Assembly: GCA_040902555.1 (NCBI GenBank)
Contig: JBBDXC010000001.1
Location: 150,662 to 214,661 of the forward strand
Length of the DNA stretch: 64,000 nt
Reading direction: 5' to 3'
Origin: Dehalococcoidia bacterium
GTDB lineage: Bacteria; Chloroflexota; Dehalococcoidia; WHTO01
Of this stretch, positions 2,619 to 47,179 are shown one piece after another (the stretch's first letter is position 1; each line of letters begins with the position of its first letter). Both the position numbers and the translations under genes were made by a program. The notes under the pieces are model-generated. The model ran no database searches and was not told where the DNA came from. It was given only the letters and a program-made list of their open reading frames with translations.

Positions 2619-3932
2619 TTAAGCGACGGCGGGTGCGCCGAGTGAGGACTGAGCCTTGAGGACGTAGGTCGTCATCGTGTCGGTCAGGTCGAGTGCCACG
2701 CCCATGCGGGCTCCCAGCCCTGAGATCAGCCCCATTACGCGGCCAATGAGCAGGAACTCCGTCGGGATGTCGACCAGCGGGTTCTCGCGCAGTACTGCCA
2801 TCATCCTCACGTTCATCTGACGCGTCAGCTCGCGGCGCGGCGTGCTGGTGTCGCTCATACTGCGGGCGAACATATCGCCGACGGCTTCGAGGGCATCGAC
2901 GCTGTCGATTCTGGTGCGGAAGCCCATGCCGCGCAGCGCGCGGCCGATCAGCTTGCGGTCGCGAATGACCATGGCCCAGGTGAGCTCGACGTAGGCGCGA
3001 CGAAATTGCTCGTCGAGGTCCTTGCAGAGTCCGAAGTCGAGAAGGACGATGCGCGGGCCGGGCTGGACCAGGATGTTGCCGGGGTGGGGGTCTGCGTGGA
3101 AGAAGCCATCGACCAGGACCTGCTGCATATAGGCCGTCACGATTTGCCGCATTACCTGCTCGGGCTCAGCGCCGATAGATTCAATGCCGCGCCGGTCCGT
3201 CGCCTTGACGCCCTCGATGTACTCCATGACCAGGAGGCGCCGCGAGCTGTGCTCCCAGACGATGGCCGGCACGACGATCCCGGGGTCGTCGGCGAAGTTT
3301 CGCGCGATGCGCTCGGCGTTGCGGCCCTCGTTGACGAAGTCGAGCTCCTGGGAGGCGGCGAACTGCAACTCGTCGACGAAGGAGCCCAGGTCGAACTCCT
3401 TGAGCCAGAGGCGCTCAGCCGCTTTGGCGATCAGGCGGATGTTCCGCAGGTCGACCTTGACGATCTCCTCGATGTCCGGGTACTGGGCCTTGACCGCCAC
3501 CTGGCGGCCATCGCGGAGGCGCGCCCGGTGCACCTGGGCCAGCGAGGCAGAGGCGATGGGGATCGGGTCGAACTCCGGGAAGACCTCCTCGAGGGGGCGG
3601 CCCAGCTCGGCATCGATGACGGTGCGGATCTCAGCGAAGGGGCGCGGCGGGACGTCGTCGTGCAGCTTGCTGAGGACCTCGACGTATTCGTCGGGGAAGA
3701 GGTCTGCGCGGGCGCCCATGACCTGGCCAGCTTTGATCATCAGGCCTTTGGTACTGGTCGCCAGCTCGAGGAAGCGGCGGGCGCTACCCCTGTGCTGGCC
3801 GGCCAGGCGCCGCTCCTTGACCTCCTCGGGGACGCTGCGGCTGCGCAGGTTGGTCGCGCGATATCCTGCGTAGATTGCGCCGGCTGCGTAGAGGACGCGC
3901 GCCGAGCGCACGGCGCGCTGGACAGGGTTCAA
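2619..3932 (-). CDS. ABC1/UbiB-family atypical protein kinase.
   Basis: ABC1 kinase core motifs: GQVHRA, DFVNEG, HADPHPGNILV, LLDFGL. Proposed TTG start at 3932 overlaps the upstream aminotransferase TGA (TTGA). The longer ORF to 4178 overlaps that gene and is rejected. Confidence 0.75.
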   Translation of the reverse strand: MNPVQRAVRSARVLYAAGAIYAGYRATNLRSRSVPEEVKERRLAGQHRGSARRFLELATSTKGLMIKAGQVMGARADLFPDEYVEVLSKLHDDVPPRPFAEIRTVIDAELGRPLEEVFPEFDPIPIASASLAQVHRARLRDGRQVAVKAQYPDIEEIVKVDLRNIRLIAKAAERLWLKEFDLGSFVDELQFAASQELDFVNEGRNAERIARNFADDPGIVVPAIVWEHSSRRLLVMEYIEGVKATDRRGIESIGAEPEQVMRQIVTAYMQQVLVDGFFHADPHPGNILVQPGPRIVLLDFGLCKDLDEQFRRAYVELTWAMVIRDRKLIGRALRGMGFRTRIDSVDALEAVGDMFARSMSDTSTPRRELTRQMNVRMMAVLRENPLVDIPTEFLLIGRVMGLISGLGARMGVALDLTDTMTTYVLKAQSSLGAPAVA

Positions 3933-5161
3933 GCCGCTGAGGCCTCGTAGGTCTTCTGCAGGGCGACGCCCAGCCGGCGGATAGCCTCGGGGATGTCGTC
4001 GAGGGCGATGTACGAGTAGGCGAGGCGCACGAAGTTGTCGCGGTCCTCGTCGGAGAAGAAGCTGTCGCCGGGGACGACCACTGAGCCTTCGCGATAGGCA
4101 GCGCTGCTCACCTCCTGGGAGGTGTGGCCGGGTTTGAGCTCCAGCCAGATGAAGAACCCGCCTTCGGGCCGCGACCAACTGCAGTAGTCGGCGCAGTGCT
4201 CTTCAAGTCCGGCGAGCATGGCGTCGCGCTTGCTGCGGTAGAGGTCGATCATCTCCTGGCGGTGGCGCTCCATCGTGCCGTCGCGCATCAGCTCGACGAC
4301 CATCCTGGCCAAGAAGGGCGAGGTGCCCATGTCGAAGCGCAGGTTGATGAGGGCCTTTACGACTTCGGGGTCTGCCTGCGAGTAGCCGAGGCGGAGGCCT
4401 GTGGCGATGATCTTCGAGAAGGTGCCGATCCTGATCACGCCCTCGCCGCCGGCGAGCGTGTAGAGCGATGGGAGATCCTCGCCATCGAAGCGCAGGCCAT
4501 CATAGGCGGCGTCCTCGACGATGATGGCGCCGTACTCGCGGGCTATCTCAACCAGCTCGCGCCGGCGGTCGAGCGTCATCGTCACGCCGGCGGGGTTGTG
4601 AAAGTTGGGGATGGTGTAGATCAGCTTGAGCGGGGCGCCACTGGCGCGGACGGCCTCAGCCGTCTCGCGCAGGGCTTCCGTGACCATGCCCTTTTCGTCG
4701 AGGGCGACGCCATGGATGATGGCGCCCGGTCCGCGGAAGGACCTGATCGAGCCGGAGAAGCTGGGGTTCTCGACGATCACAGCGTCGCCGCTATCGAGGA
4801 AGGCGCGGCAGACGTTGTCGAGGGCCTGCGCCGACCCGTTGGTGAGCATGAAGTGTTCGCGGGTCAGCTCGATGCCCTCGGTGCTGCCGATCCAGGCGGC
4901 GAGCTCCTGGCGCAGCGGTGGAGGGCCCTGGGGCCCGCCGTACTGGAGGGCGAGCTTGGCCTCCTCCTCCTGGCTCATGACGGCGCTGGTGGCTTCGGCG
5001 ATGGCGGCGAAGGGCAGGGCGGCAGGGTCGGGGACGCCGCCGGCGAGGATCAACAGCGGGACCGACGGCGGCGCGGCGCTGGCCGGCAGCCAGGACCGCA
5101 CGCCCTGGGCCTGTTTGGAGAGCAAGCGCTCGTGGAAAGGGGGAGATTGGACTTCGGTCAA
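3929..5161 (-). CDS. PLP-dependent aminotransferase, class I/II (fold type I).
   Basis: Length and motifs fit AAT-family aminotransferases (…GTFSKIIATGLRLGY… with the Schiff-base Lys region). First gene of a two-gene operon with the UbiB-like kinase. Confidence 0.8.
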   Translation of the reverse strand: MTEVQSPPFHERLLSKQAQGVRSWLPASAAPPSVPLLILAGGVPDPAALPFAAIAEATSAVMSQEEEAKLALQYGGPQGPPPLRQELAAWIGSTEGIELTREHFMLTNGSAQALDNVCRAFLDSGDAVIVENPSFSGSIRSFRGPGAIIHGVALDEKGMVTEALRETAEAVRASGAPLKLIYTIPNFHNPAGVTMTLDRRRELVEIAREYGAIIVEDAAYDGLRFDGEDLPSLYTLAGGEGVIRIGTFSKIIATGLRLGYSQADPEVVKALINLRFDMGTSPFLARMVVELMRDGTMERHRQEMIDLYRSKRDAMLAGLEEHCADYCSWSRPEGGFFIWLELKPGHTSQEVSSAAYREGSVVVPGDSFFSDEDRDNFVRLAYSYIALDDIPEAIRRLGVALQKTYEASAA

Positions 5162-5362
5162 GGTGGCTTCCCTTCAAGGCTAGTGAGTGCATTCCAATCA
5201 TTACAGACCTTGTTCAGCGGAGGACGTTTACCCCACCCCCGGCCCCTCCCTCTCCATTGGCGAGTCTTCGACCGTAAACAGGGAGGGGAGAAGGGGAGAC
5301 GACCTCACCCCCGCTGTCTCCCCCGCCCAGGCGGGCAGGCAGGCGACTCTTCGAGCGGCTGG

Positions 5363-5385
5363 CCCTCTCCTTGCCAAGGAGAGGG
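5363..5385. repeat. 23-bp palindromic (REP-like) element, copy A: ccctctccttgCcaaggagaggg.
   Basis: Perfect inverted repeat read directly. An identical copy lies at 5509..5531. Confidence 0.8.
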
Positions 5386-5406
5386 GAGAGACGGGGGGCT
5401 GGGGGA

Positions 5407-5487
5407 TTGAACCATTTGAACCTATTGAACCATTTGAACCTATTGAACCATTTGAACCTATTGAACCCTTTGAACCGTTTGAACCGC
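5407..5487. repeat. Tandem array of nine 9-bp units TTGAACCNT (18-bp super-period ttgaaccat/ttgaaccta x3, then ttgaaccct, ttgaaccgt, ttgaaccgc).
   Basis: Counted unit by unit: 5407-5415, 5416-5424, ... 5479-5487. Non-coding; ORF 5187..5645 (EPFEPIEPFEP...) is just its translation. Confidence 0.9.
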
Positions 5488-5508
5488 TGACCCTGGGACC
5501 TCACCCTG

Positions 5509-5531
5509 CCCTCTCCTTGCCAAGGAGAGGG
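5509..5531. repeat. 23-bp palindromic (REP-like) element, copy B, identical to 5363..5385.
   Basis: ccctctccttgccaaggagaggg, preceded by cctcaccctg. Together with copy A it brackets the 9-mer array. Confidence 0.8.
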
Positions 5532-5607
5532 TTTCCCACGCCAGGCGCGCAGGCGGGCGGGAGAGGGGAAAGAAAGGGCACGGGCAGGGATTCCGTCATC
5601 GTTAGTT

Positions 5608-5730
5608 GGCCTTATTTCGCGTTATTTGGCGTTATTTGGGCTTAGTGGGCGCGGGGCCGGGGGCTTAATCGGGCTTATTTGGCGTTAGCGGGGCTTATCG
5701 GGGGCTATTCGGCGTTAGATTGCGTTAGCT
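5608..5730. repeat. Degenerate tandem array built on GCGTTA(TTTGG)/GGCTTAT(TTGG/CGGG) units.
   Basis: gcgttatttgg, cgttatttggg, gcttaatcggg, gcttatttggcgttagcgggg, cttatcggggg, ctattcggcgttagattgcgttagctggg. About 10 imperfect units. Confidence 0.6.
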
Positions 5731-5868
5731 GGGAAAACTTTTTGTTTTTCGGTCGAGGGCTCCTCCTTGTCGCGAAGCCGGGGGTTTTGATCGGGGTTGT
5801 TCGCGAGGTCCGGCTCCGGTTGTTTGATCGATGCTTGGGTCATTTCAGATTCGGCAGGTGGTTGTTGG

Positions 5869-5895
5869 GTTGTTTGAGTTGTTTGAGTTGTTTGA
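5869..5895. repeat. 3 x GTTGTTTGA perfect tandem repeat, plus a degenerate unit upstream (gttgttggg).
   Basis: Units at 5869-5877, 5878-5886 and 5887-5895. Confidence 0.8.
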
Positions 5896-6075
5896 TCTGT
5901 TGCAAGCAGAGAGGTCTCCAGAGGCGACTCTGCGAGGGGAATGGCGGGGAGAGAGGCGGCGGACGCTGTTGGCCTTCGACCAGGGGTGTGGTTCTGCCGC
6001 GGGAGGGATAGCTGGGTTGGGACGAAGCGTCACACGGAGATTGTTAGGGGCCGAGGCGTCAGATCCTGTCGTTGG

Positions 6076-7011
6076 CTACAGAACGTCGCGCACGCGGAGG
6101 TAGATGTCTCCGGTCTGCGCAGCATGGCGGCGCTTTCTCAAGAGGAGATCGTCAAGCTTGATCCTGCCTTCAAGTACAGCGATCAGATCTTCGCCATCCA
6201 TGAGCATCACCAACCGACGACCAGATGAAAAGGCGGTCACGGAATCAGGCGAGAAGCCATTTATTGAAACAAACAGGCCCAGAGTGTTATCAAGGCGGCG
6301 CTCCACCTTGCCCTTAAGCGCATCCAGAGCCTCACGGTCAGTCGGCTCATTCCTCCAGCGAGCTTCGATCAGATAGTCGGTGCCCTCGAAGCCGAACATG
6401 CCGTCAATTTGTTCGCCTGTAACCCTGAATGATTTCTTGGGGTCCAGGTCGAACAGGTCGAAAAGGTCGTGGAGAAGCTTTTCGAGCGCGTAGCCTCGCG
6501 GGACAGGCCTTGTCTTGAAGAGGTCGGAGTAAAGCGTTTTGAGTTGGGTAAGTTGAGATGTGAACTCAGCAATTCGGGTCCGCTGGGCCTCCGCGGACAA
6601 CCGGCGGCGCTCTATCTCGTCAGCTTCGCGGACCAAGTCTTGGTGGCGGGCCGCAAACGGGCGGAGGGCCTCCACGGCTTCACGAGCCGCCTTTTCCCGA
6701 ACCGCACTGTCCTCAAGCCGCGCGAGATGCGGAAAGGATGTGATCTCAGCCACCTGAGCGATGAGCCAAAGGATGTCGTCCTGGTATTTCTGGGGCGCGG
6801 ACGCAAGGAAGTCGACAACAAAGGAAGCTGTGTCCCTTTTTGCTCCTTCCCAGTTCGTCGTAGCGAGTACCGCGTGGCCGGGAAGCGCGTCATGTAGGAA
6901 GATCCTGAGATCCCGCTTGTACCAGAACACAACGGCGAGGGCGTGCTTTAACGCGGTGAGGGCGGCCGCCGAGACCCGGCGTTCATGTAGAGACGCGCTC
7001 ATTGAGCACAT
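6076..7011 (-). CDS. Restriction-endonuclease-like (Mrr-type PD-(D/E)xK) domain protein with uncharacterised N-terminal domain and central coiled coil. Last gene of the type I R-M operon.
   Basis: C-terminal half: ...LEKLLHDLFDLFDL...VTGEQIDGMFGFEGTDYLIEARW..., a D...E-x-(K/R) nuclease core with Mrr_cat-like layout. Central heptad-like Arg/Glu-rich segment (DLVREADEIERRRLSAEAQRTRIAEFTSQLTQLKTL). Co-oriented 33 nt downstream of hsdM. AT-richer than the surroundings. Confidence 0.5.
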   Translation of the reverse strand: MCSMSASLHERRVSAAALTALKHALAVVFWYKRDLRIFLHDALPGHAVLATTNWEGAKRDTASFVVDFLASAPQKYQDDILWLIAQVAEITSFPHLARLEDSAVREKAAREAVEALRPFAARHQDLVREADEIERRRLSAEAQRTRIAEFTSQLTQLKTLYSDLFKTRPVPRGYALEKLLHDLFDLFDLDPKKSFRVTGEQIDGMFGFEGTDYLIEARWRNEPTDREALDALKGKVERRLDNTLGLFVSINGFSPDSVTAFSSGRRLVMLMDGEDLIAVLEGRIKLDDLLLRKRRHAAQTGDIYLRVRDVL

Positions 7012-7044
7012 CTTAGAAGTTTGGCCGGATCTAGGATGTCCGTT

Positions 7045-8556
7045 CTAAAGCAATGCCCTTAGGGACTTGATTGCTTCGTCGACTTCGCGGCCTTTTTGCT
7101 CGATGATGTCCAGCAGCTCTTCGGGGGTGCGTGTGTCCTCGTCGGACTTGCGGTTGGGGTTTACCGCTTTGAGGTCGTAGTTTCGGGCCTCAAGCTCTTC
7201 GCGGGTCACTGTCCAGCTGCGCTCGCTGTCGGCTCGCTCCGGCAAGAGTCGGAAGAAATCCTCAAAGCGTTCGAGCGTCAGCGGCGTTTTCTTGCCGACC
7301 TTGATGTTGGAGAGGTCGTAGTACCAGACCTTCTCGGTTGGGCCGCCGCGGGTGAAGAAGAGGAGATTCGTTTTGACGCCGGCGCCGGCGTTGACGAAGG
7401 CGCCTCCCGGCAGGCTGACGATGCACCAGAGGTCGGTGTCGTTAAGCAGCTTGCGCTTGGTCTGGACGAAGGCGGTCTCGTTGTTGCGGAAGAGGACGCC
7501 CTCATCGACGACGATGCCGGCGCGGCCACCGGGCTTGAGGCTGTCGATGACGTGCTGCAGGAAGAGGACCTGGGTGGAGCCAGTCTTGTAGGGGAAGCGG
7601 GTCTGCGCCTCTTTGCCTTCCTTGCCGCCAAACGGAGGATTCATCAACACCACGTCGTAGAGGTCCGGTGAGCCGTGAAAGAGGCCGCCGTAGGTCTCGG
7701 CGCCGGTCAGGGTGTTGCCGTGCCAGATGTGCGGCTCATCGATGTTATGGAGGACCAGGTTGGCCAGGGCGATGGGATAGATCTGGTTGTCTTTCTCGCG
7801 GCCGAAGAAGGTCTCGTGCTTCAGGACGTCAAGCTGATCGCCCGACTCGATGTTGGCGTTGCCCGGACCGGCCATGTGCTGAAACGACTGGGCCAGGAAA
7901 CCGCCGGTGCCGCAGCCCGGGTCGTAGACCGACTCGCCAATCTTGGGGTCGACGACGCTGACCATGGCGCGGATGATCTCGCGCGGGGTGAAGAACTGGC
8001 CGCCGTCGTTGCCGCGCTCGCCCATTTTGAGCAGAAGTCCTTCGTAGACCTGGGACAGCGGGAAGACGTGGGTCGGGTCGATGGTCTCGTCGGTGATCTG
8101 GTCGACCTTGTCGAGAATGTCGAGGAAGTTGCGCTCGCTGTCGACGCGAGTGCGCTCGACGCCGGACATGATCTGGCTGATGACGCGCTGTCGGGCCGTG
8201 GCGTGTGAGCTGTGGTTGAGGCCGCGCAGGTGAGGCAGCAGGTCGCCGTTGATGAAGGCGAAGAGATCCCCCAACGTCCCGCTCTCGAGCTCTACCCGCT
8301 TTCCGCCATTGGGTGCTCCCCAGTCCTGCCAGCGGTAGGGTGCCTCAAGGGAAGGCGAGAAGGCTGCGGCTACCGCTTCCGCTTCTTCGGCGTCCTTCGT
8401 TTCTCGCTCGTCGAGGATGCGTAGGAAGAGCATCCACGTCAGCTCGGGGACGTACTGGAGGGCCCCGGCGCAGTTAGAGCGGCGCATGATGTCGCAGATG
8501 CCCTTTACGAGGCCATCGACCGACTGACGAGATTGACGGACGCTATTGACCACCAC
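7045..8556 (-). CDS. hsdM: Type I restriction-modification system, N6-adenine DNA methyltransferase subunit HsdM.
   Basis: NPPFG catalytic motif (VVLMNPPFGGKEG), SAM-binding region, HsdM-like N-terminal domain. GTG start at 8556. Confidence 0.9.
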   Translation of the reverse strand: MVVNSVRQSRQSVDGLVKGICDIMRRSNCAGALQYVPELTWMLFLRILDERETKDAEEAEAVAAAFSPSLEAPYRWQDWGAPNGGKRVELESGTLGDLFAFINGDLLPHLRGLNHSSHATARQRVISQIMSGVERTRVDSERNFLDILDKVDQITDETIDPTHVFPLSQVYEGLLLKMGERGNDGGQFFTPREIIRAMVSVVDPKIGESVYDPGCGTGGFLAQSFQHMAGPGNANIESGDQLDVLKHETFFGREKDNQIYPIALANLVLHNIDEPHIWHGNTLTGAETYGGLFHGSPDLYDVVLMNPPFGGKEGKEAQTRFPYKTGSTQVLFLQHVIDSLKPGGRAGIVVDEGVLFRNNETAFVQTKRKLLNDTDLWCIVSLPGGAFVNAGAGVKTNLLFFTRGGPTEKVWYYDLSNIKVGKKTPLTLERFEDFFRLLPERADSERSWTVTREELEARNYDLKAVNPNRKSDEDTRTPEELLDIIEQKGREVDEAIKSLRALL

Positions 8557-9728
8557 TACGCGCGGGCTCCAATCGCCGTCTCGGCCAGGACAGACGCCAA
8601 CTCCCCGGCAGCCCGATCGACCCCTATTGCGGCGTCCCGGATGCGGCCCATTCCGGCCTCAACGAGACGAAATCGGTCAGTAAGCCGAATCTGGTCCGAA
8701 ATCGACGGCAGCGGGACCCGCTCCTCGCGGAGGACAGCGCCGCTAACAATCGGCTGGCCGCCGCCGCGGGCCGCGCTCTCCTGACGCAGCGCAAGGTAGC
8801 GGTAGCGGAACCAAGCTTGCAGAAAATACGAGTCAAATCTGGCCGGCTCGGGGAGAATGCCAAACGCATTTTGACTACAGGTAGAAGGTATGCGAAGGAT
8901 GCCAGTACGCCCTCTGGTTTGGCCTTGGCCCACCATTGCGACAAAAAGTGTGCCGGGGGGAAAGAGCCGCAGATTGTGATCGACCACGGCGGTTTCGCTT
9001 ATGTGCTGGGACGTTTGCCAAACGTCGGCGTCTCTCAATTCAGTCGTGGTAAGCCATGGCACGTCGCCGACGAAGTACTCGGGGTGCACTCGTGACGGAG
9101 TCGAGCCGCTCTTTGTTTCCGCGAAGTCCCCTAGCCGGTGACGCGGCCACCGGGCTGCCTCGCCCTCCTCGAAAACGGCGCGAAGGTAACCGGCTGGAAG
9201 TTGTTTGGCGGCTTCGAGGCGAGCCTGGCTGGCGGCGCGGGCGTTATCTAGCAGGCCCAGTTGCTGCTCCAGCTTCCTAACGATGCGTCTCTGTTCCGGC
9301 AACGAAGGCAATACGAATTCCAACGACTCCAAGTCACTCCTGCCGATGGCTGAAAAGGTGCTCCCACTGCCACGAGCAGCAATATCCTTTTCGCGTGAAC
9401 GCAGCACCCACAGCGCATAGCGTTGATCGAGGCTCGGACCACACCGAATTGCCGCGAGACCCCTGCCAATAGCGGATTCGGTGTCGGCCACGTTGGTCGG
9501 CCCAACCGGCGCACGAACTGAGATTAGAATGTCCCCTGGTTGCGCTATGCAGACCGGATCGGTGCACCATATCCGCGCGATGGGGTGCAGCGAGCCAAAG
9601 TCGGCCTTGCCTTGAAAGAAGGGAAGGCCCTCAGGCTTTGTGCGATAAGTGGAGCCAGGCGGCGACTGGCCCGCGACGATGGTCGCCACGTCCCCCAGCC
9701 GCACATTCGAGGCGCCATACGTCGTCAA
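8556..9728 (-). CDS. hsdS: Type I R-M specificity subunit HsdS.
   Basis: Two target-recognition-domain repeats with conserved central and C-terminal helical spacers (…LPEQRRIV.KLEQQL… / …SISDQIRLTDRF…). TTG start overlaps the hsdR TGA (TTGA). Confidence 0.85.
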   Translation of the reverse strand: MTTYGASNVRLGDVATIVAGQSPPGSTYRTKPEGLPFFQGKADFGSLHPIARIWCTDPVCIAQPGDILISVRAPVGPTNVADTESAIGRGLAAIRCGPSLDQRYALWVLRSREKDIAARGSGSTFSAIGRSDLESLEFVLPSLPEQRRIVRKLEQQLGLLDNARAASQARLEAAKQLPAGYLRAVFEEGEAARWPRHRLGDFAETKSGSTPSRVHPEYFVGDVPWLTTTELRDADVWQTSQHISETAVVDHNLRLFPPGTLFVAMVGQGQTRGRTGILRIPSTCSQNAFGILPEPARFDSYFLQAWFRYRYLALRQESAARGGGQPIVSGAVLREERVPLPSISDQIRLTDRFRLVEAGMGRIRDAAIGVDRAAGELASVLAETAIGARA

Positions 9729-12121
9729 GCGGAGAACATCCGGGACTTGGTCTCGGCCAGAACCTCGACGGGTTTTCCGGCCAGTCGAAGCGCTTTAACG
9801 CCACCGGCTCTGTCTACCGCCGGAACGCTAAATATCTCCGGGTTCTCGATACCCTCAGTGCCGGCGCGCGCAAACTGCTGAGCGATCGCCTTGATCGCGG
9901 CAGCAGCCTGATCAGGCATCCCATCCAGCCAGCGGGAGTGCTTGTAGTCGAAGGCGTCCGTCCGGTGTTTCCTGGTTAGCGGATTTAAGCCGTAGCCGAT
10001 CTCGCCCAGGACGTCGTAAAGGTCGTACTCCTTCATGTTCTCAAGTTCCCTGATAACGGATGCCGAGCGGCCGCCGTCTGGCAGGGCGTTCAGCAGCTCC
10101 CGGCGGTGATCCGGGAGCACCCAGATGTCACGAAAACCGTCCAAGGTGGCTGCTTCCTTCGTCAGGCTTTCGGCCACCATCCCTTTGTACTCCTCGACGG
10201 TAACCGGCGTGGCCTTGCCATCGACACTGGTTAGGATATAGCGGCCGGCGTCGCTGATCCTGACCTCGAAGCCCTCGACCTGTATGGTCCTTTCGCTGTT
10301 GCCTTCATCGGCTTGGTCTTCGGCTGACCCTGAGGGCTCGTCGGTCGTCCGTGTCCCGGGGCTACTGATAAAGTCTTTGCCGAAGAGACGGGTGGCGTTT
10401 GTGTAGTCGTAGACGCGAAACATCAGCTTGGCCGTTTGCGGGTGCAGGCGCGTGCCACGGCCGACCATCTGGTAGAAAGCGATCGGCGACTTCACGTACT
10501 TGAAGAAGACGATGTTGCGGACGATGGGGACGTCGACCCCGGTTGTGAGAAGGTCAACTGTCGTGGCGACGAAGTGACTTCGGGACGAATCTCGTAACTC
10601 CGGCAGGAAGTCATTGCCGAAACTCGCGGCCGTGCATTTGAAGGCATAACTCTCCAGGGGCTTCTTACCCTCGTCCTTACACCACGCTGCATACCAGTTG
10701 TTGAGGCGGATCGCGACCTGTTCGGCGTGGCTGTCGCGAGCGCAGAAGATGATTGTCTTTTGCTCGGGGCCGCCCGTCCGCACCAGGTGACTGAAGAGAT
10801 CGTTGGTCATGCTGTTTACACGCTCAGGAAGCTGGATGCGGTCCTCGAAATCGGGAGCTAGGTACTTCTCACGTACGTCGGATATCGATAGGACTTCCCC
10901 AGTAATCGTGTCAACCAGCTTCTTCCCTTTCAGGTCCGTGTGGGTCAACTCGCTCTCGCGCTCGTTTGCAGGCTGACCGACAAACCAGGGGTCGCGGCGA
11001 ATTATCTCGCAGGCGGCCAGGTAGCCGTCCTCGATGCCCTGGGCGATGTCGTACTCGTAAACGGGCTCCCCGAAGTGGCGGATGTTGTCGGCCTGTATAG
11101 CGAGGTCCACCACCGCGTCCTCGGCGGATTCGGCTACATCGAGGCGGCGTGGGGTGGCCGTGAGGCCAATCTGCACAGCGTCCGGGTTGCGGGTCAGCAA
11201 CTCAGACCACTTGCCCCATGCCGACCGGTGACATTCGTCGATGACGATGTGAGTGAAGTAGTTCTCGGGGTAGTGCGTCCGCAGGAACGAGCTGTCATCC
11301 TCGTCGCTGGCGACTCCCAGGGTCTGGTAGGTAGCGACGTGCACGCGGGCGTTCTTCGCCTTGTTCCGACCGCCGTACTCCTGCTGAACAAGCGCCGCGT
11401 TGCTGCCGAACTCCTGGTTGAGCGCCGCGTGCCCCTGTGTCCGCAGTTCGTCGCGGTCACAAACAAAGAGCGCGCGTCGCATTTGACCAGCGTCGTCGAT
11501 GCGCTTAAGGAGGTTGACCGCGATCTTTGTTTTCCCAGACCCCGTGGCCAGAGAGAGTAGGGCGCGTTTCTCACCCCGCGCCAGCTTTTCGAGGACCGCG
11601 CGGATGGCCGCGTCCTGGTAGTAGCGGATCGAGGCCTGACCGCGAGGATACGGGACCGAGAGGGGCGCTGCGGATGGGTCTGTGAGGCGGAAACCCTTGA
11701 GCTCCTCGTAGCGGTGTTGCAGCTCTTCCGGGGTAGGGAAGGCTGCAATGGGGAGCGGCTCCGAGGTCAAGCTGGTGCCCGCGTCGTACTGCACGAATTG
11801 GTGGCCGTTGCTGGTGAAGGCGAAGGGCAGGTTAAGCCGCTTTGACGCGGCGTAGAGCTTGACCTGCTCGAGGCCGTAAGCGGGCGGGAGATGCTCGGCC
11901 TTGGCCTCGATCAAGGCGACGGCTACCGGGTGACCATCGGGGCGGGCTTTGACGCGCAGGGTGTAGTCGACGCGGCCATGGCTGCGGCGGCGGGCGCGGC
12001 CCTCGGCTATGTAGATGCCGCCGTCCGTCTCCTCGCGGCGGATCATGTCCTCGGTCCAGCCCCGGGCGTAGAGGGCAGGGTCGATGAGCCTGGCTCTGGT
12101 GTCGGCTTCGGAGAGTGTCAT
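9725..12121 (-). CDS. hsdR: Type I R-M restriction subunit HsdR (PD-(D/E)xK nuclease + SF2 helicase).
   Basis: N-terminal HsdR_N nuclease (VDYTL…VALIEAK). Walker A LSLATGSGKT, DECH box (IVIDECHRS), motif VI (QMVGRGTR). Confidence 0.9.
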   Translation of the reverse strand: MTLSEADTRARLIDPALYARGWTEDMIRREETDGGIYIAEGRARRRSHGRVDYTLRVKARPDGHPVAVALIEAKAEHLPPAYGLEQVKLYAASKRLNLPFAFTSNGHQFVQYDAGTSLTSEPLPIAAFPTPEELQHRYEELKGFRLTDPSAAPLSVPYPRGQASIRYYQDAAIRAVLEKLARGEKRALLSLATGSGKTKIAVNLLKRIDDAGQMRRALFVCDRDELRTQGHAALNQEFGSNAALVQQEYGGRNKAKNARVHVATYQTLGVASDEDDSSFLRTHYPENYFTHIVIDECHRSAWGKWSELLTRNPDAVQIGLTATPRRLDVAESAEDAVVDLAIQADNIRHFGEPVYEYDIAQGIEDGYLAACEIIRRDPWFVGQPANERESELTHTDLKGKKLVDTITGEVLSISDVREKYLAPDFEDRIQLPERVNSMTNDLFSHLVRTGGPEQKTIIFCARDSHAEQVAIRLNNWYAAWCKDEGKKPLESYAFKCTAASFGNDFLPELRDSSRSHFVATTVDLLTTGVDVPIVRNIVFFKYVKSPIAFYQMVGRGTRLHPQTAKLMFRVYDYTNATRLFGKDFISSPGTRTTDEPSGSAEDQADEGNSERTIQVEGFEVRISDAGRYILTSVDGKATPVTVEEYKGMVAESLTKEAATLDGFRDIWVLPDHRRELLNALPDGGRSASVIRELENMKEYDLYDVLGEIGYGLNPLTRKHRTDAFDYKHSRWLDGMPDQAAAAIKAIAQQFARAGTEGIENPEIFSVPAVDRAGGVKALRLAGKPVEVLAETKSRMFSA

Positions 12122-12228
12122 GGGTTTGTGTAGTTAGCAAACCACACCTGCGCTCCACGGCGCACGTCCACGACTCTTCCCAGCCGGTTTTTCCGTGGGC
12201 GTTGAATCCTCACTAGAATCAGCTAGCT

Positions 12229-13665
12229 ATGTTTGACACCCTTTCCGACCGCCTGCAGGCGGTATTCGGCCGGCTCGGCCGCAGCTCCAAGATCACCGAG
12301 AAGGACCTCGACGATGCCCTGCGCGAGGTCCGCGTGGCGCTGCTGGAGGCCGACGTCAACTTTAAGGTCGTCCGCGGCTTCATCAACGACGTGCGTGGGA
12401 AGGCGATCGGCGCCGAGGTCACGAAGAGCGTCACGCCGGTCCAGCAGGTGATCGCCATCGTCAACGACGAGCTGGTCGGGATGCTGGGCGGCGAGCAGGC
12501 CACCCTGGCCATGTCGTCGAAGCCCCCTACCGTCCTTGTATTGGTGGGACTCAAAGGGGCTGGCAAGACCACGACAGCGGCAAAGCTGGCGGCGCACCTG
12601 CGCAAGCAGGGAGGCAAACCACTCCTGGCTTCCGTTGACCGCCAACGTGTCGCCGGCGCCGAGCAGCTCGCGTCTCTGTCGCGGCAGTTGGGCGTCGAGT
12701 TCTACTCGCGCGACGCGAAGCCGGACGAGATCGCCCGCGAATCCGTGCTGGAGGCCGCCAAGCGCGGCTCGTCCGTCGTGATCATCGACACGCAGGGCTA
12801 CGTCGAGCTGACCGAAGACGTCGTCAGTGACCTGGGCAAGCTGCGAGACGCCGTCAAGGCCAACGAGATCCTGCTGGTCGCCGACGCCATGACGGGCCAG
12901 GAGGCCGTGAACGTAGCCCAGGAGTTCAACGAAGCCCTGGGCCTGACCGGCCTGATCCTGACGAAGGTCGACAGCGACGCGCGAGGTGGTGCAGCCCTTT
13001 CGATCCGCGCCGTTACCGGCGTGCCAATCAAGTTCGTCGGCACGGGTGAGAAGACAGACGCCCTAGAGCCGTTTTATCCCGACCGCTTCGCCTCGAGGAT
13101 TCTCGGCATGGGTGACGTCGTTTCACTGGTCGAGAAGGCGCAGGAATCGATCGACGAGGACCAGGCGCGGCGGATGGAGGAGAAGCTACGCAAAGGCTCC
13201 TTCGACCTCCAGGACTTCTCCGATCAGCTTCAGCAGGTGCGGAAGATCGGGCCGATGGCCCAGGTCCTTGGCATGCTGCCGGGGTTCGGCCAGATCAAGA
13301 AGCAGCTCAGCGAGTCGCAGCTCGACGAGAGCCAGTTCAAACGGGTGGAGGCGATGATCTCCTCGATGACAGGCCCCGAGCGCCGCCAGCCCGACCTGCT
13401 GGAGCGCAACGGCGGCCGCCGGCGCCGCGTGGCCGACGGCAGCGGGACAAGCCTGGCCGACGTCAACCGGCTGCTCAAGCAGTTCGGCGAGGCCAAGAAG
13501 CTGATGGAAGCGATCAGCAGCGGCCGCATACCCAAGAACATGGCGGCGATGATGCAGGGCATGGAGGGCGGCAACGGCGCTGACGTGCAGGTGGGGGCGG
13601 GAACAAAGGCCAATATGGCCGGGCAGCTATCGCGCCGCCAGCTGCGCAAGCAGCGCCGCCACTAG
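12229..13665 (+). CDS. ffh: Signal recognition particle protein Ffh.
   Basis: N domain, SRP54 G domain (GLKGAGKTTTAAKLA, DTQG, TKVD), Met-rich M domain (MAAMMQGMEG). Confidence 0.9.
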   Translation: MFDTLSDRLQAVFGRLGRSSKITEKDLDDALREVRVALLEADVNFKVVRGFINDVRGKAIGAEVTKSVTPVQQVIAIVNDELVGMLGGEQATLAMSSKPPTVLVLVGLKGAGKTTTAAKLAAHLRKQGGKPLLASVDRQRVAGAEQLASLSRQLGVEFYSRDAKPDEIARESVLEAAKRGSSVVIIDTQGYVELTEDVVSDLGKLRDAVKANEILLVADAMTGQEAVNVAQEFNEALGLTGLILTKVDSDARGGAALSIRAVTGVPIKFVGTGEKTDALEPFYPDRFASRILGMGDVVSLVEKAQESIDEDQARRMEEKLRKGSFDLQDFSDQLQQVRKIGPMAQVLGMLPGFGQIKKQLSESQLDESQFKRVEAMISSMTGPERRQPDLLERNGGRRRRVADGSGTSLADVNRLLKQFGEAKKLMEAISSGRIPKNMAAMMQGMEGGNGADVQVGAGTKANMAGQLSRRQLRKQRRH

Positions 13666-26804: not shown

Positions 26805-27716
26805 TCAGCCGGCGCGCGGGTGGGTGCGCTCGTACTCGTCCTTCAGACGCTGGTCCGTCAAATGGGTGTAGACCTGCGTCGTCGAGATGTTGGCGTGCCC
26901 CAGAAGCTCCTGCACGTTACGGATGCTGGCGCCGCCGCTCAGCATGTGCGTGGCGAAGCTGTGGCGGAGCGTGTGGGGGGTGACCGGGCTCTTGATCTGG
27001 GCGCTGGCCGCGTAGATCTTGAGAATCAGCCAGAAGCCCTGGCGCGTCAGCCTTTGCCCGCGGCGGTTGACGAATAGCGCCCGCTCGTTACGGTCGCGGA
27101 CCAGGGCGGGCCGCGACTCGGCCAGGTATTTTGCTACCGATTCACCGGCGGAGGAGTCAAAGGGGATGACGCGCTCCTTGGAGCCTTTGCCCAGGCAGCG
27201 CACACGACAGCCGTCGGCGTCGATCTGGACGCTATCGGTGTCGAGCGCCGTGAGCTCCGAGACGCGCATGCCTGTGGTGTAGAGCAGGTCGAGCATCGCT
27301 TTGTCGCGGATAGCCTCGTGCGACCCGCGAAGGAGGGGTTGCTCGAGGAGGTCGTCGATCTCCTGCTTCGTGAGGGCTTTGGGCAGAGTCTTGCCGATCT
27401 TGGGCGAGGCAAGATGCTCGGTCGGATCCTTTTGGACCATGCCCTCGCCTGAGAGGAACTTGTAGAAGGAGCGGATGGCGGCGATTTTGCGCGCGACGCT
27501 GGAGGCCGCATACTTGCGAGACAGCAGGTCGGCCTCGAAATTTCTTACGTCCTCGGGCCGAACCTTGTTCCAGTCACGGGCGTCGGGGGTTGGCACGCTG
27601 CCGTCGAGGAATCGATGCAGTTGATTGAGGTCGTTCTGGTACGCCTGGCGTGTATTCTCCGAGACGCCGTTCTCGAGGACGAGGTAGTCGAGGAACTTCT
27701 GGATCACATGGTCCAA
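26805..27716 (-). CDS. xerD: Tyrosine recombinase XerD-like.
   Basis: Core-binding domain plus catalytic R..H.R.Y set (…HTLRHSFATHML…LLGHANISTTQVYTHL). Confidence 0.85.
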   Translation of the reverse strand: MDHVIQKFLDYLVLENGVSENTRQAYQNDLNQLHRFLDGSVPTPDARDWNKVRPEDVRNFEADLLSRKYAASSVARKIAAIRSFYKFLSGEGMVQKDPTEHLASPKIGKTLPKALTKQEIDDLLEQPLLRGSHEAIRDKAMLDLLYTTGMRVSELTALDTDSVQIDADGCRVRCLGKGSKERVIPFDSSAGESVAKYLAESRPALVRDRNERALFVNRRGQRLTRQGFWLILKIYAASAQIKSPVTPHTLRHSFATHMLSGGASIRNVQELLGHANISTTQVYTHLTDQRLKDEYERTHPRAG

Positions 27717-40851: not shown

Positions 40852-41291
40852 GCGGTATCGTCCTTCCGGATGAGGGGGATCAGGGTGTCTACAGCTTCAA
40901 GATAGCCCTGCCAGCCCTTACCCGTGATCAGGGCGCGGGCAGCGGTGGCGGTGATGAAGGAGTGGCGGAAGGGCTCGCGCGTAGCCGGATCGGAGATGTG
41001 GACCTCGACTACGGGCAGGTTGGTGTCGGCCAGGGCATCGCGGAGGGCGACGCTGTAGTGGGCGAGGCCGCCGGGGTTGATGATCACGCCGTCGGCGCCG
41101 GCGGACTCGGCCTGCAGCCAGTCGATCAGGGCGCCCTCGTGGTTGGACTGGAAGTCCCTGAGCTCGGCCCGGTCGCCGAGGCGCTCGCGGACGGCGGCGA
41201 CGACCTCGGCGAGGGTCGTGGTGCCGTAGACAGCGGGGTCGCGGCTACCCAATTTGTTGAGGTTGGGGCCGCTCAGGAGGAGGACGCGCAT
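40848..41291 (-). CDS. aroQ: Type II 3-dehydroquinate dehydratase.
   Basis: LLSGPNLNKLGSRDPAVYGTTTL…HISD: the AroQ family signature. Confidence 0.9.
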   Translation of the reverse strand: MRVLLLSGPNLNKLGSRDPAVYGTTTLAEVVAAVRERLGDRAELRDFQSNHEGALIDWLQAESAGADGVIINPGGLAHYSVALRDALADTNLPVVEVHISDPATREPFRHSFITATAARALITGKGWQGYLEAVDTLIPLIRKDDTA

Positions 41292-41813
41292 GGAACCTCG
41301 GGGGTTTGTGTGGTTGTTCTTTTGTTTGTTTGTTTTGCGGTTTCGTGAAGCTGGCGAGGGCGGGGTTCAGATTCGGCGGGGATTTGTTTGATTGTTTTGC
41401 TGTTTGCGGGTGGGGTGGTGGCGCGGGCGGTTGAGGAGGGATAGAGAGGCATGGGTTTAGAAGATACGTTCTAAGGGGGTATGGTGTCAATCCCCCGGGG
41501 GGTGCTGCCTGTTGGTTTCCGATAACCGGCGTTGTCGTCGTCGAAGGTTGGGGAGGGCTTTGCGGGCTTCGAATGGAATGTCGGCAGCGTGCGGGGGATT
41601 CGGGCGGTATGCGGGCGACGGTCCCCACCAGGGCACAGACCTCCCCTACAGGGGAGCCCCTACACCGATTTTCGGGCTTCGGTCCCGGGGCGTACGTCGT
41701 TTGCGAGGACCGTGCGCGGAAGCACAGGCCTCCCCTACAGAAACGGCCGGATCGCCGGTTTGGCCGGCAAGCAGCGGCGAAGCGGTGCGCTATGGGCCAG
41801 AGGTTTGGACGGG

Positions 41814-43754
41814 TCAGGGGATGCTGGTTACGGTTTCGCAGCCAGCGGCGGCTTCGCCGCCGAGGAAGCTGTCGGGGTTGGCGCCGCCGTGGCACTTATC
41901 GTTGGCGCCGTTCTCGCCGGCAAGCCTGTCCTGCCCGGGGCCGCCGAGGAGGGTGTCATTGGCGTCGCCACCCTTGAGCCTGTCGTTGCCGAGCCTACCC
42001 TCGATTTTGTTGATCGCCGTTGAACCGGTGATCTTGTCGTTGCCGTCGCCGGCGCGGACCCGCTCAACCGAGATGAGGCGGACACCGGCGCCCTCGCCGC
42101 TGGCGGCGCCCGTGGCCAGATTTATGACGCGGCCGAGGTCCCCTGTGAATAGGGCGGTGTCGGTGCCGGCGCCGCCATTGATGGTGTCCTGGCCGGCGCC
42201 GCCGTTGATTGTGTCGTTGCCGGTCCCGGAGCAGATGAGGTCGTTGCCGCCCTTGCCGTTGATCGTGTCGGCACCGCTGAGGCCGAGGATGACATCGACT
42301 CCCGGCGTGCCATTGAGCACGTTGGCGGCGTTGTCGCCGGCGATGGTCTCCGGTTTGCCCTGGCAGAAGCGTGCTTCGAAGGCGCCGATGTCGCAGCTAT
42401 TGCCCTGTGGCCGGGGGATGCCGCGCTGGTCGCGCTTGTTGACCGTGTTCATATCGTCGCACGTTGTGTCATCGCCCTTGTTGAGCGCGGGGCTGCCCGC
42501 CAGCAGGGCATGGGTTAGCGTGGGACCGCCGTTGTCCTGTAAGGGCCCAAGCAGCGGGTCGGTGGAGGGCTGGTCACTGAGCTGATCGAGGTTGCAGGTG
42601 CCATCGCCGTCGATGTTGTTGCCCGCGGAGATGATGTTTCCTTCGCAGTCATCGAAGGTCTTCTGGTCAGTCCCGTCGACGATCGTGTTGCGCAGCGTCA
42701 TGCTGGAATTGCCCGCGAACAATTCTGTTTTGCCATTGAGACGGATGGTGCTGTTGGTGACGGTGGCTGTGCCGCCGCTCAGCCCTATGGCCCCTGCGTT
42801 GCTGCTGCTATTCATGCTGAGCGTGCTGTTAACGACGGTCAGCACTCCGGTATCTGTCTCGACGGCTCCGTTGCTGGCGGACGCAACGTTGTTTGTGAAA
42901 AGGCTCTGGATGATGTCGAACGACGCGCCGTTGTTGAAGATGCCGCCGGCGCTGTGGGCGTTGTTGTCGGCAATGGTGCTGCGGACCAGGTCAACGCTGC
43001 CGAGGGCGCCGTCGTTGTAGATGGCGCCCCCGTCCGCGGCGTCATCGTTTGCTGAAGCCGGCCCGTTGGAGACGATCGCCGAGGCGGTGATCCTCAACGT
43101 GCCCAGGTTGTAGATGCCACCGCCCCTCGGGTCGGAGAAGCTTTCGTCGGTGCCGACGTTGTCTGCGATCAGGCTGTTCATGATTGTCAGGTTGCCGGTG
43201 TTGTTGTTGTGAATGCCGGCACCGTCGTTAGCGGTCGCGTTATCCCTTACGGCGACGTTGTCGAGGGTCAGGAAGCCGGAGTTCCGCAGCCCGCCGCCGA
43301 GGTCGACGTCGTAGCCATTCTGAATGGTGAGGTTGGACATGGTGACTACCGAGGTGCCGATGGCAAAGAGACGGCTGGCATCGCCGCCGTCGATCAGCGT
43401 GATGTCCCGTCCGGCGCCGACGATGTTCAGGCTGCTGTCGGGAATCGTAATCTGGCCGTTATCCACAGTAAACGTGTCGGGGCCGGGCGCGCCGAGGTCG
43501 GGGATGACGATGTCGTCCGGGCTGCCGCTGACGTTGAGGGCAGTGGCGATCGCCCCGCGTAGCGAACAGTCGTTGGCCACGTTGTCGAAACAGTCATCCG
43601 GCACCGGTGCGATGGGGTCGTCGGTCCGATCGACCGTGTAGACGGCGGCGAGAACCCTCTCAGGCTGCGACAGCTGAAGCCCGAGGAGGAGCGCCAAAGC
43701 GACAACGCCAAGAAGTGACAGGCCCAGCCTCGAGAGTCGCAGCGGACGGTTCAT
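41814..43754 (-). CDS. Secreted right-handed beta-helix (Pmp/GGAI-repeat) protein with CSLREA-like N-terminal cap and RTX-type calcium-binding C-terminal module. Paralog 1 of 3.
   Basis: Signal peptide. CSLRGAIATALN cap. GGGIYN/GGAIYN Pmp-like repeats. C-terminal GGxGxD nonapeptides ending …CETVTSIP. Confidence 0.7.
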   Translation of the reverse strand: MNRPLRLSRLGLSLLGVVALALLLGLQLSQPERVLAAVYTVDRTDDPIAPVPDDCFDNVANDCSLRGAIATALNVSGSPDDIVIPDLGAPGPDTFTVDNGQITIPDSSLNIVGAGRDITLIDGGDASRLFAIGTSVVTMSNLTIQNGYDVDLGGGLRNSGFLTLDNVAVRDNATANDGAGIHNNNTGNLTIMNSLIADNVGTDESFSDPRGGGIYNLGTLRITASAIVSNGPASANDDAADGGAIYNDGALGSVDLVRSTIADNNAHSAGGIFNNGASFDIIQSLFTNNVASASNGAVETDTGVLTVVNSTLSMNSSSNAGAIGLSGGTATVTNSTIRLNGKTELFAGNSSMTLRNTIVDGTDQKTFDDCEGNIISAGNNIDGDGTCNLDQLSDQPSTDPLLGPLQDNGGPTLTHALLAGSPALNKGDDTTCDDMNTVNKRDQRGIPRPQGNSCDIGAFEARFCQGKPETIAGDNAANVLNGTPGVDVILGLSGADTINGKGGNDLICSGTGNDTINGGAGQDTINGGAGTDTALFTGDLGRVINLATGAASGEGAGVRLISVERVRAGDGNDKITGSTAINKIEGRLGNDRLKGGDANDTLLGGPGQDRLAGENGANDKCHGGANPDSFLGGEAAAGCETVTSIP

Positions 43755-43756
43755 CG

Positions 43757-46700: not shown

Positions 46701-47152
46701 CGGTCGATGACGATGATCGGTGAGCCGGCGAAGTCGGGTTCGCTGGTCCCGTCGATGCGGATGGACTGAGTAATTTGAGGGAGGTCCGTACCGAGCGTGA
46801 TCGCGTAGGGCGGCGCTCCGCTCAGGTCGAAGTTGATGATATCGACGTCTGCAGTGCCGGCGTTGGCCTCCTGGATGGCGGCGCGCAGCGTACAGGCGCC
46901 GGCGCCGGTGTCGCAGATGTCGTCGTTTAAGTTGGCGTCCGCCCCATCGCCGGTGCTGTTGACGACGAACGGCGCGTGGTTGGCGCTGGCGGCGGGGACT
47001 TCGCTGCTGACCACAGCCAGGGACAGGGCAATGAGCGCCGCCAAGGTTGAGAAGAAGCCCACCGGCCTTGAGATCAGCGCCACTGCACCACCATCGGCCC
47101 CGGACGGGAACCGTAATGCCCGCAGCTTATGTCTGCTACAGCACTGAGTCAA
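43757..47152 (-). CDS. Giant secreted beta-helix/DUF11/thrombospondin-type-3-repeat protein with the same RTX-type C-terminal module. Paralog 2.
   Basis: CTLRAAIQEAN cap. Beta-helix repeats. DUF11-like domain (LELDKEVTDSTPTEGQSITFTLTLTHN…). TSP3-like DxDxDGxxDxxDNCP repeats. C-terminus …CEVVTSIP. Stop lies only 2 nt before the paralog 1 ATG. Confidence 0.7.
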   Translation of the reverse strand: MTQCCSRHKLRALRFPSGADGGAVALISRPVGFFSTLAALIALSLAVVSSEVPAASANHAPFVVNSTGDGADANLNDDICDTGAGACTLRAAIQEANAGTADVDIINFDLSGAPPYAITLGTDLPQITQSIRIDGTSEPDFAGSPIIVIDRGLFITAGGSTIGGLVINHSAGAGLNIATNGSNIIAGNYIGTDATGTAVGNAGSLGIVVQTGSTGNIIGGTTAADRNVISGNTEDAIILTGSGGHFVRGNYIGTDKDGIADLGNGGRGILIQSPSNQIGGETGTDPDGPCSGSCNLISGNGSIGIAVQGTSIGPNSAVIAGNFIGVDVNGTAAIANLVGIAISPAGSNFETSGTTVGGTTPAARNVISGNTGDGVQLSGLQTKNNTIQGNYIGPAAGGGNVGGNGLGVFIGNGAHDNTIGGTTGLTPEDGCTGACNRIQGNQGDAVLVGNTPSDLATNNRIRGNSIFGNLGLGIDLADNGVTNNDADVNNDSDGGPNNLQNFPDIATAASTGTATTVTFSLQSEPNKSYDLDFFVGVCNVAPAFGEGETLIKTLTVLTDADGSYPASGTDSFLTNAPLTPGEGVTATATDPTGNTSEFSACTFITGTRADLELDKEVTDSTPTEGQSITFTLTLTHNQANSTDEAENVTVTDLLPAGLTYVSHAAAQGTYNPGNGVWTVGQVLQGTAPTLSIVATVDTLSDVTNTAEVTANDRWDPDSIPNNGVTTEDDYDEVTITPITDADGDDVDDGVDLCPNTASGATVDASGCSALQVDADGDGICNPGAATDGPSDCQVAPADNCPTTANAGQEDNDGDGAGDACDPDRDGDGIANGSDGCPDTPEDLDGVEDTDGCPETDADADLVEDQNDACPLVPEDLDGVGDGDGCPETDHDSDTILDEQDNCPENANPGQEDVDQDGAGNACDGSDNRPSCGGQKATIWQDTDGLIQGTNGADVIVGTAAGETINGAGGQDLICGRAGNDIINGGAGGDQIFGEGGADRIDGGPGQDTIHGGGGPDTALFPGTLARTINLATGAASGEGVGVRLTSIEHVRAGDGNDKITGSTAINRLEGMLGNDRLRGGDANDKLFGGPGQDKLAGENGANDKCHGGANPDTFIGGSAVSAGCEVVTSIP

Positions 47153-47179
47153 GGATGCGCAGCGACTAACCGGCGTCCG

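Follow-up and report, generated by a model that had tools for sequence, protein, structure and literature searches.

A non-coding patch of hairpin repeats and minisatellites beside a type I restriction-modification island in a Dehalococcoidia genome

What is a patch of DNA in which three unrelated tandem arrays and two identical palindromes crowd the gap beside a restriction-modification (R-M) operon: a mobile module, a set of binding sites, or the trailing end of an insertion? We put this question to positions 5187-6075 of a 64,000-nt stretch from a Dehalococcoidia bacterium (assembly GCA_040902555.1, contig JBBDXC010000001.1, positions 150,662 to 214,661; this whole stretch is hereafter the window). 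A sequence-only reading had placed the patch between the promoter of an aminotransferase gene and the 3' end of an R-M block, and had suggested either a module resembling a miniature inverted-repeat transposable element (MITE) or an iteron array, or the insertion scar of the R-M island. Annotation with Pfam and PADLOC confirmed the location, and all three arrays and the paired palindromes are present. In our view the region is probably the non-coding 3' tail of an acquired ~7-kb operon, comprising type I R-M genes and an Mrr-like gene and set into the spacer between ffh and the aminotransferase gene; the tail would be a patchwork of hairpins of the BoxC/PIT/TM family and minisatellites, terminator-like in character and accidental in arrangement. 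The region marks an unstable insertion site, not a new genetic device; its hairpins are a variant of a known repeat family and its arrays are minisatellites of an ordinary sort, frequent in certain other genomes.

The R-M island is an insertion beside ffh

On the right of the region stand four minus-strand genes, hsdR (9725-12121), hsdS (8556-9728), hsdM (7045-8556) and, last in the operon, a gene for a restriction endonuclease-like protein with an Mrr_cat domain (6076-7011, the Mrr-like gene); the three hsd genes make up a canonical type I R-M system. They are flanked by ffh (12229-13665, plus strand) and by a class I/II aminotransferase gene (3929-5161, minus strand), all of these being recognised by Pfam and PADLOC. 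The aminotransferase has a 100% identical counterpart in a Dehalococcoidia metagenome-assembled genome. The nearest relatives, whose aminotransferase is 79% identical, are found on three JGI contigs (L003, L004 and L006). In two of them (L003 and L006) a spacer of only 96-156 bp divides ffh from the divergent aminotransferase gene, and R-M genes are lacking; the repeats are absent there too, and the idea of an insertion scar is supported by this comparison. Homology with all three contigs runs on the left from the aminotransferase start to ~5213, so that the minus-strand stretch 5162-5213 is native upstream region still alignable to the relatives' spacer and the insertion's left edge lies just beyond it; on the right, an ffh-proximal CTAGAATCAGC box kept in the relatives is found at ~12205-12222. 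Because the relatives have ffh directly beside the aminotransferase gene, the segment ~5214-12204 (edges approximate), holding the repeat region and the genes for the Mrr-like protein, HsdM, HsdS and HsdR, is a ~7-kb insertion relative to their loci, and the repeat region is therefore its trailing non-coding end.

Composition also sets the island apart. The GC content at third codon positions (GC3) of the Mrr-like and HsdS genes is 0.67, vs. 0.84-0.89 for native genes, and overall GC is 0.585-0.63 over 5-11 kb, vs. ~0.66 elsewhere in the window. We suppose that the R-M and Mrr-like operon would have been acquired horizontally and inserted into the short divergent intergenic region between ffh and the aminotransferase gene. 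The island edges yielded no convincing target-site duplication or inverted repeats, and none of the genes of the island or next to it was recognised by Pfam and PADLOC searches as an integrase, transposase, rep or par gene. Far from it, the window holds two Xer-type tyrosine recombinase genes (Phage_integrase plus SAM-like N domain; 26805-27716 and 51087-52049), which are probably xerC and xerD rather than island integrases.

The region is non-coding

Region 5187-6075 is non-coding, as had been claimed from the sequence. Neither six-frame translation nor GC by codon position gave any coding signal within it: the open reading frames (ORFs) are flat (GC1 ~ GC2 ~ GC3, with GC3 of 0.58-0.68, vs. 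the 0.84-0.89 of the native neighbour genes) and stop codons break all the longer frames. The 152-aa ORF simply translates as IEPFEPIEPFEP...

Searches for known RNAs and replicons were also negative. No Rfam family matched the window at gathering or permissive thresholds, nor did any match the 34 hairpin-bearing loci from other genomes that we searched; the window contains no detectable tRNA or tmRNA; and blastn of the region against plasmids and phages gave no match. Folding z-scores within the region are unremarkable, at -1.05 and +0.22. Three further candidates were tried and rejected: a type III toxin-antitoxin system with a ToxI-like repeat RNA (there is no toxin gene downstream), a CRISPR (the units are contiguous, without spacers) and an oriC or DnaA-box cluster (cumulative GC skew climbs through the window, with small dips but no sustained reversal). 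A tRNA T-arm-like origin of the GGTTCAA units, and a role of the arrays as recognition sites for the island's HsdS, were considered and set aside.

The palindromes are BoxC/PIT/TM-type hairpins

The two palindromes, of sequence CCCTCTCCTTGCCAAGGAGAGGG, lie at 5363-5385 and 5509-5531 and are identical, over 24 nt if the preceding G is counted; 100 shuffles gave no match to them. What had escaped the sequence-only reading is that they resemble a known family. The E. coli consensus of the BoxC/PIT/TM elements (TMECO) is CCCTCNCCC-N3-6-GGGNGAGGG-N3-GGGNGAGGG (PMC4666352, Holder et al. 2015). TM elements are always intergenic in E. coli, occur in >260 genomes, form an intrastrand triplex in vitro, lie in variable loci and have been linked to locally elevated rearrangement (PMC4666352). 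The E. coli motif, found exclusively in intergenic positions, near 3' untranslated regions and between operons, has also been read as a G-quadruplex-hairpin-duplex switch (PMC5100583, Kaplan et al. 2016).

A regular-expression search for elements of this type matched a complete three-block element on the minus strand at 5497-5531 (the 35-mer CCCTCTCCTTGGCAAGGAGAGGGCAGGGTGAGGTC); within it, 5499-5531 reads CCCTCTCC-TTGGCAA-GGAGAGGG-CA-GGGTGAGG on that strand, and TC follows. It shows the family's three consecutive blocks: C-rich CCCTCNCC(C), then GG(G)NGAGGG as its complement, then GGGNGAGG(G). The other hairpin, GCCCTCTCCTTGCCAAGGAGAGGG (5362-5385, minus strand), has an 11-bp stem and the C-block and G-block only; the third-block motif GACCTCACCCCC, which is GGGGGTGAGGTC on the minus strand, occurs on its own at 5301-5312. 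A 10-mer common to both hairpin copies, GACCTCACCC (repeat family D14), is found near 5301-5312 and again at 5497. We also read from the sequence a weak candidate for a degenerate third element, with a hairpin and a purine block, on the plus strand at 5242-5299 (CCCCTCCC...GGGAGGGG then AGAAGGGGAGA, inverted repeats I2 and I5). The patch would thus comprise two, possibly three, BoxC/PIT/TM copies together with three short-unit minisatellites.

The window element shares with the family its C-block, complementary G-block and second G-block (GGGTGAGG), together with its setting: intergenic (the gap that holds both hairpins is 914 nt long), past the end of an operon and between operons, in a variable locus, and wide in its bacterial distribution. 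It differs in a 7-nt first loop that is partly self-paired, giving the 11-bp stem, in a second loop of 2 nt, and in its host, a Dehalococcoidia metagenome-assembled genome (MAG). By the ITxF definition (stems of 6-15 nt, loops of 1-6 nt) the first loop misses by one nucleotide unless TTG/CAA is counted as stem. We accordingly assign the palindromes to the BoxC/PIT/TM family by architecture and not by strict consensus. Like REP/BIME elements and MITEs they are short, palindromic, interspersed and intergenic, but they lack the GTAG/CTAC signature of REPs, a RAYT gene and a terminal-repeat-plus-duplication structure, and their composite does not recur.

The highest-scoring sub-threshold Rfam match fell on these same minus-strand hairpin elements: whalefall-1, a metagenome-derived RNA motif, scored 19.9 bits at 5497-5533 and 16.7 bits at 5301-5392, against a gathering score of 37. 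This motif may be a relative of the BoxC/TM hairpins.

One hairpin variant recurs across phyla

We scanned one genome per species for the hairpin; the counts below, 104 copies in all, come from the matches listed and are lower bounds. The exact 23-mer was found in >103 stretches of species-representative genomes from many phyla. Its hosts among the matches listed belong to at least 10 phyla, range from 33% to 74% GC, and include Chloroflexota (Dehalococcoidia), Cyanobacteria, Ignavibacteria, Patescibacteria, Bacteroidota, Armatimonadota, Leptospirales, Fibrobacteres, SAR324 and Binatia. A third block was present near 93 of the 104 copies, as CCTC[AT]CC upstream, GG[AT]GAGG downstream, or both, in each case no more than 40 nt away, and the usual context among these matches was ACCTCACCCC...GGGGTGAGGT. 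Identity extends beyond the 23-mer: the hairpin element ACCTCACCC-CCCTCTCCTTGCCAAGGAGAGGG (23-37 nt) is nearly the same in the 65%-GC Dehalococcoidia MAG, in Patescibacteria and Ignavibacteria of 33-45% GC, in cyanobacteria and in Armatimonadota, and the window element at 5497-5533 matches copies from other phyla, for example from a Saccharibacteria MAG, with 94-97% identity across 35-38 nt.

In one 71%-GC Armatimonadetes MAG (JACPDV01) the exact hairpin occurred on 14 of the contigs that we fetched. Ten of these (L028, L044, L056, L063, L068, L078, L093, L096, L100 and L110) carry a fixed composite of the hairpin, GGGGTGAGGTCC, ~15-30 variable nt, GGACCTCCCCCTG and a second hairpin that begins CCCCCTCCTTGGC..., which is a family expansion of the hairpin.

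Such identity over such distances invites a bolder proposal, in which the hairpin either is an unrecognised micro-element that is actively spreading or is acted on by a conserved enzyme of hosts or mobile elements, and would serve as a landing pad or recombination hot spot that captures defence islands, with the arrays as by-products of the same instability. We think this proposal unlikely as it stands.

A candidate Rho-dependent tail

The four genes of the island make up a single minus-strand operon, with overlaps between hsdM and hsdS and between hsdS and hsdR and a 33-nt gap from hsdM to the Mrr-like gene, so that the region is the operon's 3' tail and minus-strand R-M transcription would run through it. 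Past the Mrr stop codon, ~520 nt of this RNA would be untranslated, C-rich, G-poor and unstructured, after which the transcript would reach the strong TM hairpins. Within this rut-like zone (5550-6075, minus strand, delimited by C/G windows and folding), minus-strand RNA from 6070 to 5550 has C/G ratios of 1.5-3.1, in the top 1-5% of all 78-nt windows, and folds no better than shuffles (z = +0.22). The best 78-nt window, 5895..5818, reaches a C/G ratio of 4.67 with regularly spaced C residues, and coincides with the array described below as (c), which as minus-strand RNA reads (UCAAACAAC)n.

RhoTermPredict looks for a 78-nt window with C/G > 1, C residues every 11-13 nt and a GC-rich hairpin within 150 nt downstream (PMC6407284). 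By these measures 389 of the 812 windows qualified as rut-like (78 nt, C/G > 1, C every 11-13 nt), and the TM hairpin at 5531-5509 stands <60 nt past the end of the C>G zone, well inside the 150-nt limit for a pause hairpin. Scans of 5000-6300 found neither a sigma-70 promoter nor an intrinsic terminator. Since all three RhoTermPredict criteria fit and no intrinsic terminator was found, we propose that the tail would act as a Rho-dependent terminator or insulator that separates the foreign operon from the aminotransferase gene, of whose native upstream region only ~50 nt is left. The tail has what such terminators have (an untranslated, unstructured, C>G stretch of >78 nt with spaced C residues, and a GC-rich hairpin within 150 nt), but these criteria are loose.

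Three minisatellites and the case for binding sites

Array (a) consists of nine contiguous TTGAACCNN units (5407-5487, plus strand; Tandem Repeats Finder (TRF) and motif matches). TRF gives it period 9 with 8.8 copies and a score of 102 (5406-5485), and finds a better fit as an 18-nt super-unit ATTGAACCATTTGAACCT with 4.4 copies, 95% matches and a score of 139; eight overlapping two-unit matches were counted, vs. 0.04 expected by chance. The sequence-only reading had the nine units right and their ending wrong: the last two bases are AT, TA, CT, GT or GC, hence NN where it gave NT. It had also set the hairpins 23 and 21 nt from the array, where in fact the spacers are 21 nt on both sides (and unrelated to each other). 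Array (b) (5598-5734, plus strand) contains ~12 units of 10 nt, (G)CGTTATTTG / GGCTTATNNG, in two strict 10-nt registers of TTA with a 23-nt G-rich spacer between them. The first block (5602-5642) has TTA at 5602, 5612, 5622, 5632 and 5642, and the second (5665-5725) at 5665, 5675, 5685, 5695, 5715 and 5725, one unit being degenerate; period-10 power exceeded that of all 500 shuffles. Array (c) (5819-5895, plus strand) has four GTTGTTTGA units at 5861-5895 (TRF, 4.0 copies), namely the three exact ones previously noted and a degenerate one before them, plus a single GTTGTTTGATC at 5819-5829.

For the 64 kb as a whole TRF gave 11 rows that score >=50, and seven of these fall within 5406-5901; dinucleotide shuffles of the window give a mean of 0.57 rows. 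The hairpin, TTGAACC, TTA-array and GTTGTTTGA motifs are not found again in the rest of the window. The rest of the window and the relatives' loci hold coding repeats only, with periods that are multiples of three; the arrays are therefore atypical for this genome and confined to the island tail. Small dispersed duplications (families D5, D10, D11 and D14) show that the segment has been reshuffled, in agreement with the instability reported around TM elements (PMC4666352).

We interpret the arrays as minisatellites of 9, 10 and 9 nt that would most simply have arisen by replication slippage in unconstrained DNA. The short tandemly repeated repetitive sequences (STRR) of heterocystous cyanobacteria, non-coding heptamer arrays with several unrelated motifs per genome, are similar in being short-unit, non-coding and of several unrelated motifs; the window arrays differ in their 9-10-nt rather than 7-nt units, in their non-cyanobacterial host and in forming one cluster in 64 kb. 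Several STRR-like heptamer arrays occur within a few kb at five hairpin-bearing cyanobacterial loci (L014, L023, L032, L080 and L084).

Could the arrays instead be protein-binding sites, iteron- or centromere-like or regulatory, with TTGAACC as a repeated half-site and the phased TTA motifs as further contacts? The bound protein would control the aminotransferase promoter or silence the island, or would formerly have replicated or partitioned a plasmid that brought the R-M genes. The 18-nt super-unit is iteron-sized and, at 95% matches, nearly perfect, the TTA motifs of array (b) stand one helical turn apart in two blocks, the arrays are unique within the window, and head-to-tail repeats of 9-18 nt are what plasmid iterons and centromere-like arrays of the parC/parS type consist of. 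However, the island and its neighbours include no rep or par gene and no other gene for a DNA-binding regulator, no plasmid or phage record is similar, and there is no AT-rich unwinding element. Array (a) begins 246 nt from the aminotransferase start codon, whereas the relatives' whole promoter region is 96 nt; a 10-nt phasing is automatic for any tandem 10-mer; and arrays of many motifs sit at varied positions in other high-GC contigs. We regard binding-site function as improbable, and favor slippage.

Assembly support

A less likely concern is that the interior, ~5272-5909, is mis-assembled or collapsed, so that copy numbers or the order of parts would be artefacts. In an independent short-read assembly of the same run (Logan contigs), the left contig stops at ~5271 and the right one at ~5910, and the array copy numbers between these points thus rest on one assembly. 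Nevertheless, both contigs are identical to the window as far as their ends, all arrays are shorter than one read, and an assembler of k=31 unitigs is expected to break at repeats; we think artefact decidedly unlikely. Logan contigs also end or join at 7970-7999, within hsdM. These breaks, at ~5271, ~5910 and 7970-7999, may be graph branches from strain heterogeneity (island-plus and island-minus) or may be repeat-induced.

Hairpins and arrays occur independently of each other

The symmetry of the locus, with identical 24-nt palindromes 21 nt away on each side of array (a), had prompted the idea of a MITE-like mobile unit with the palindromes as terminal repeats, and the wide dispersal of the hairpin sequence among genomes might seem to favor it. 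Yet the whole unit did not recur. The hairpin alone is in >100 genomes, with a short tandem array within 300 nt of only four of the 104 listed copies, which is chance level; conversely, TTGAACC arrays occur elsewhere without hairpins, and among the matches listed none was flanked by TM-type hairpins in other contigs. Each kind of repeat is thus found without the other, and the palindrome-array-palindrome does not recur as a unit; we take the arrangement to be accidental to this locus, without a function of its own. Nor is there a target-site duplication around the pair, and the third-block motifs are typical of BoxC/TM, for which no association with mobile elements was found in E. coli (PMC4666352). 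The spacers that such a unit would enclose share no sequence, and there is no rep, par or transposase gene to serve a MITE- or iteron-like module, a proposal that we consider very unlikely and abandon.

Three consecutive TTGAACCNN units are abundant in public metagenome and viral data, and 240 of the 317 arrays among the matches listed sit in open frames of >=600 nt, where they encode VEP, LEP, IEP or FEP (xEP) or T/S-G-S (Gly-Ser-X) tripeptide repeats. Phage and giant-virus contigs (L231-L350; e.g. L251, 4079-4294) carry such arrays, of up to 24 units, in long ORFs for (V/L/I/F)-E-P or (T/S)-G-S. That the region is the wreck of a tripeptide-repeat gene, xEP on the plus strand or collagen-like Gly-Ser-X on the minus strand, as this coding majority and the IEPFEPIEPFEP... 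reading of the 152-aa ORF might suggest, is highly improbable, given the absence of codon-position GC bias, the stops in every longer frame, array flanks that are hairpin repeats and not coding-like, and the non-coding occurrence of the same 9-mer arrays in high-GC contigs.

These last are ~40 metagenome contigs among the matches listed, of 0.59-0.74 GC, in which most of the TTGAACCNN arrays look non-coding. Many of the non-coding arrays begin immediately at a stop codon, and many occur as inverted pairs, (GGTTCANNN)n then (NNNTGAACC)n, as in one of ~400 nt between two urease accessory genes within an operon (L163, 1453-1845). Inverted 9-mer pairs were also seen between genes in ten further soil and rhizosphere contigs (L144, L151, L152, L155, L161, L172, L174, L183, L224 and L230). 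In the high-GC contigs short arrays reach a density of about one per kb and include many other 7-9-nt motifs, often as inverted pairs, and TTGAACC is therefore one motif of many in an array-rich genomic style. A literature search found nothing relevant on TTGAACC tandem arrays or on inverted 9-mer pairs.

Weighing the tail interpretation

Several observations count against parts of the interpretation that we prefer, a hairpin and minisatellite patchwork in the tail of an acquired operon. On the hairpin side, the copy at 5362-5385 has no adjacent third block, the nearest being 50 nt away; the blocks of the complete element are 8 nt, vs. the published 9, and its loops 7 and 2 nt, vs. 3-6 and 3. 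Because these lengths differ slightly from the E. coli consensus, we file the element as a variant member by architecture. Copies are also few: the 64 kb contain one complete TM element and two copies of the exact hairpin, and we found no TM element elsewhere in the window and none in ~60 kb of the relatives. On the side of termination, RhoTermPredict gives ~24,000 predictions in E. coli, which makes the rut criteria unspecific (PMC6407284), and the repeat units alone may account for the high G of the plus strand. Selection, for example by a protein bound to one face of the helix, could explain the strict 10-nt phasing of array (b) and the perfect alternation in array (a) in place of neutral slippage. 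Finally, our search with the Mrr-like protein for a sibling island gave no locus close enough to compare its non-coding tail (the best homologue is 54% identical), and arrival of the repeats with the island and a later origin are both compatible with our data.

With these points set against it, we still hold the operon-tail interpretation to be probable. A defence island, consisting of a type I R-M system and an Mrr-like nuclease, has here landed in a divergent promoter region of 100 bp, and the locus is a clean natural instance of such an event; the long non-coding tail, brought along by the island or acquired there, probably shields the host gene from transcription of the island. The locus also adds Dehalococcoidia to the hosts of the BoxC/TM hairpin family. 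That many phyla share one exact 23-nt variant makes it more pressing to learn how such elements travel and whether island insertion is promoted by them; this cross-phylum identity, and the hairpin's position at an island junction, form the most interesting residue of the analysis. For annotation, the lesson is that such patches are better labelled repeat or terminator regions than ORFs or novel regulatory modules.

Other features of the window

Elsewhere on the minus strand, Pfam and PADLOC recognised a UbiB gene (2619-4178). Three tandem paralogous genes for large proteins (41814-50878) encode RTX (HemolysinCabind), TSP_3 and DUF11 domains and have conserved 300-nt 3' ends; downstream of them, at 41250-41620, runs a second long intergenic stretch that is C>G and rut-like in minus-strand RNA.

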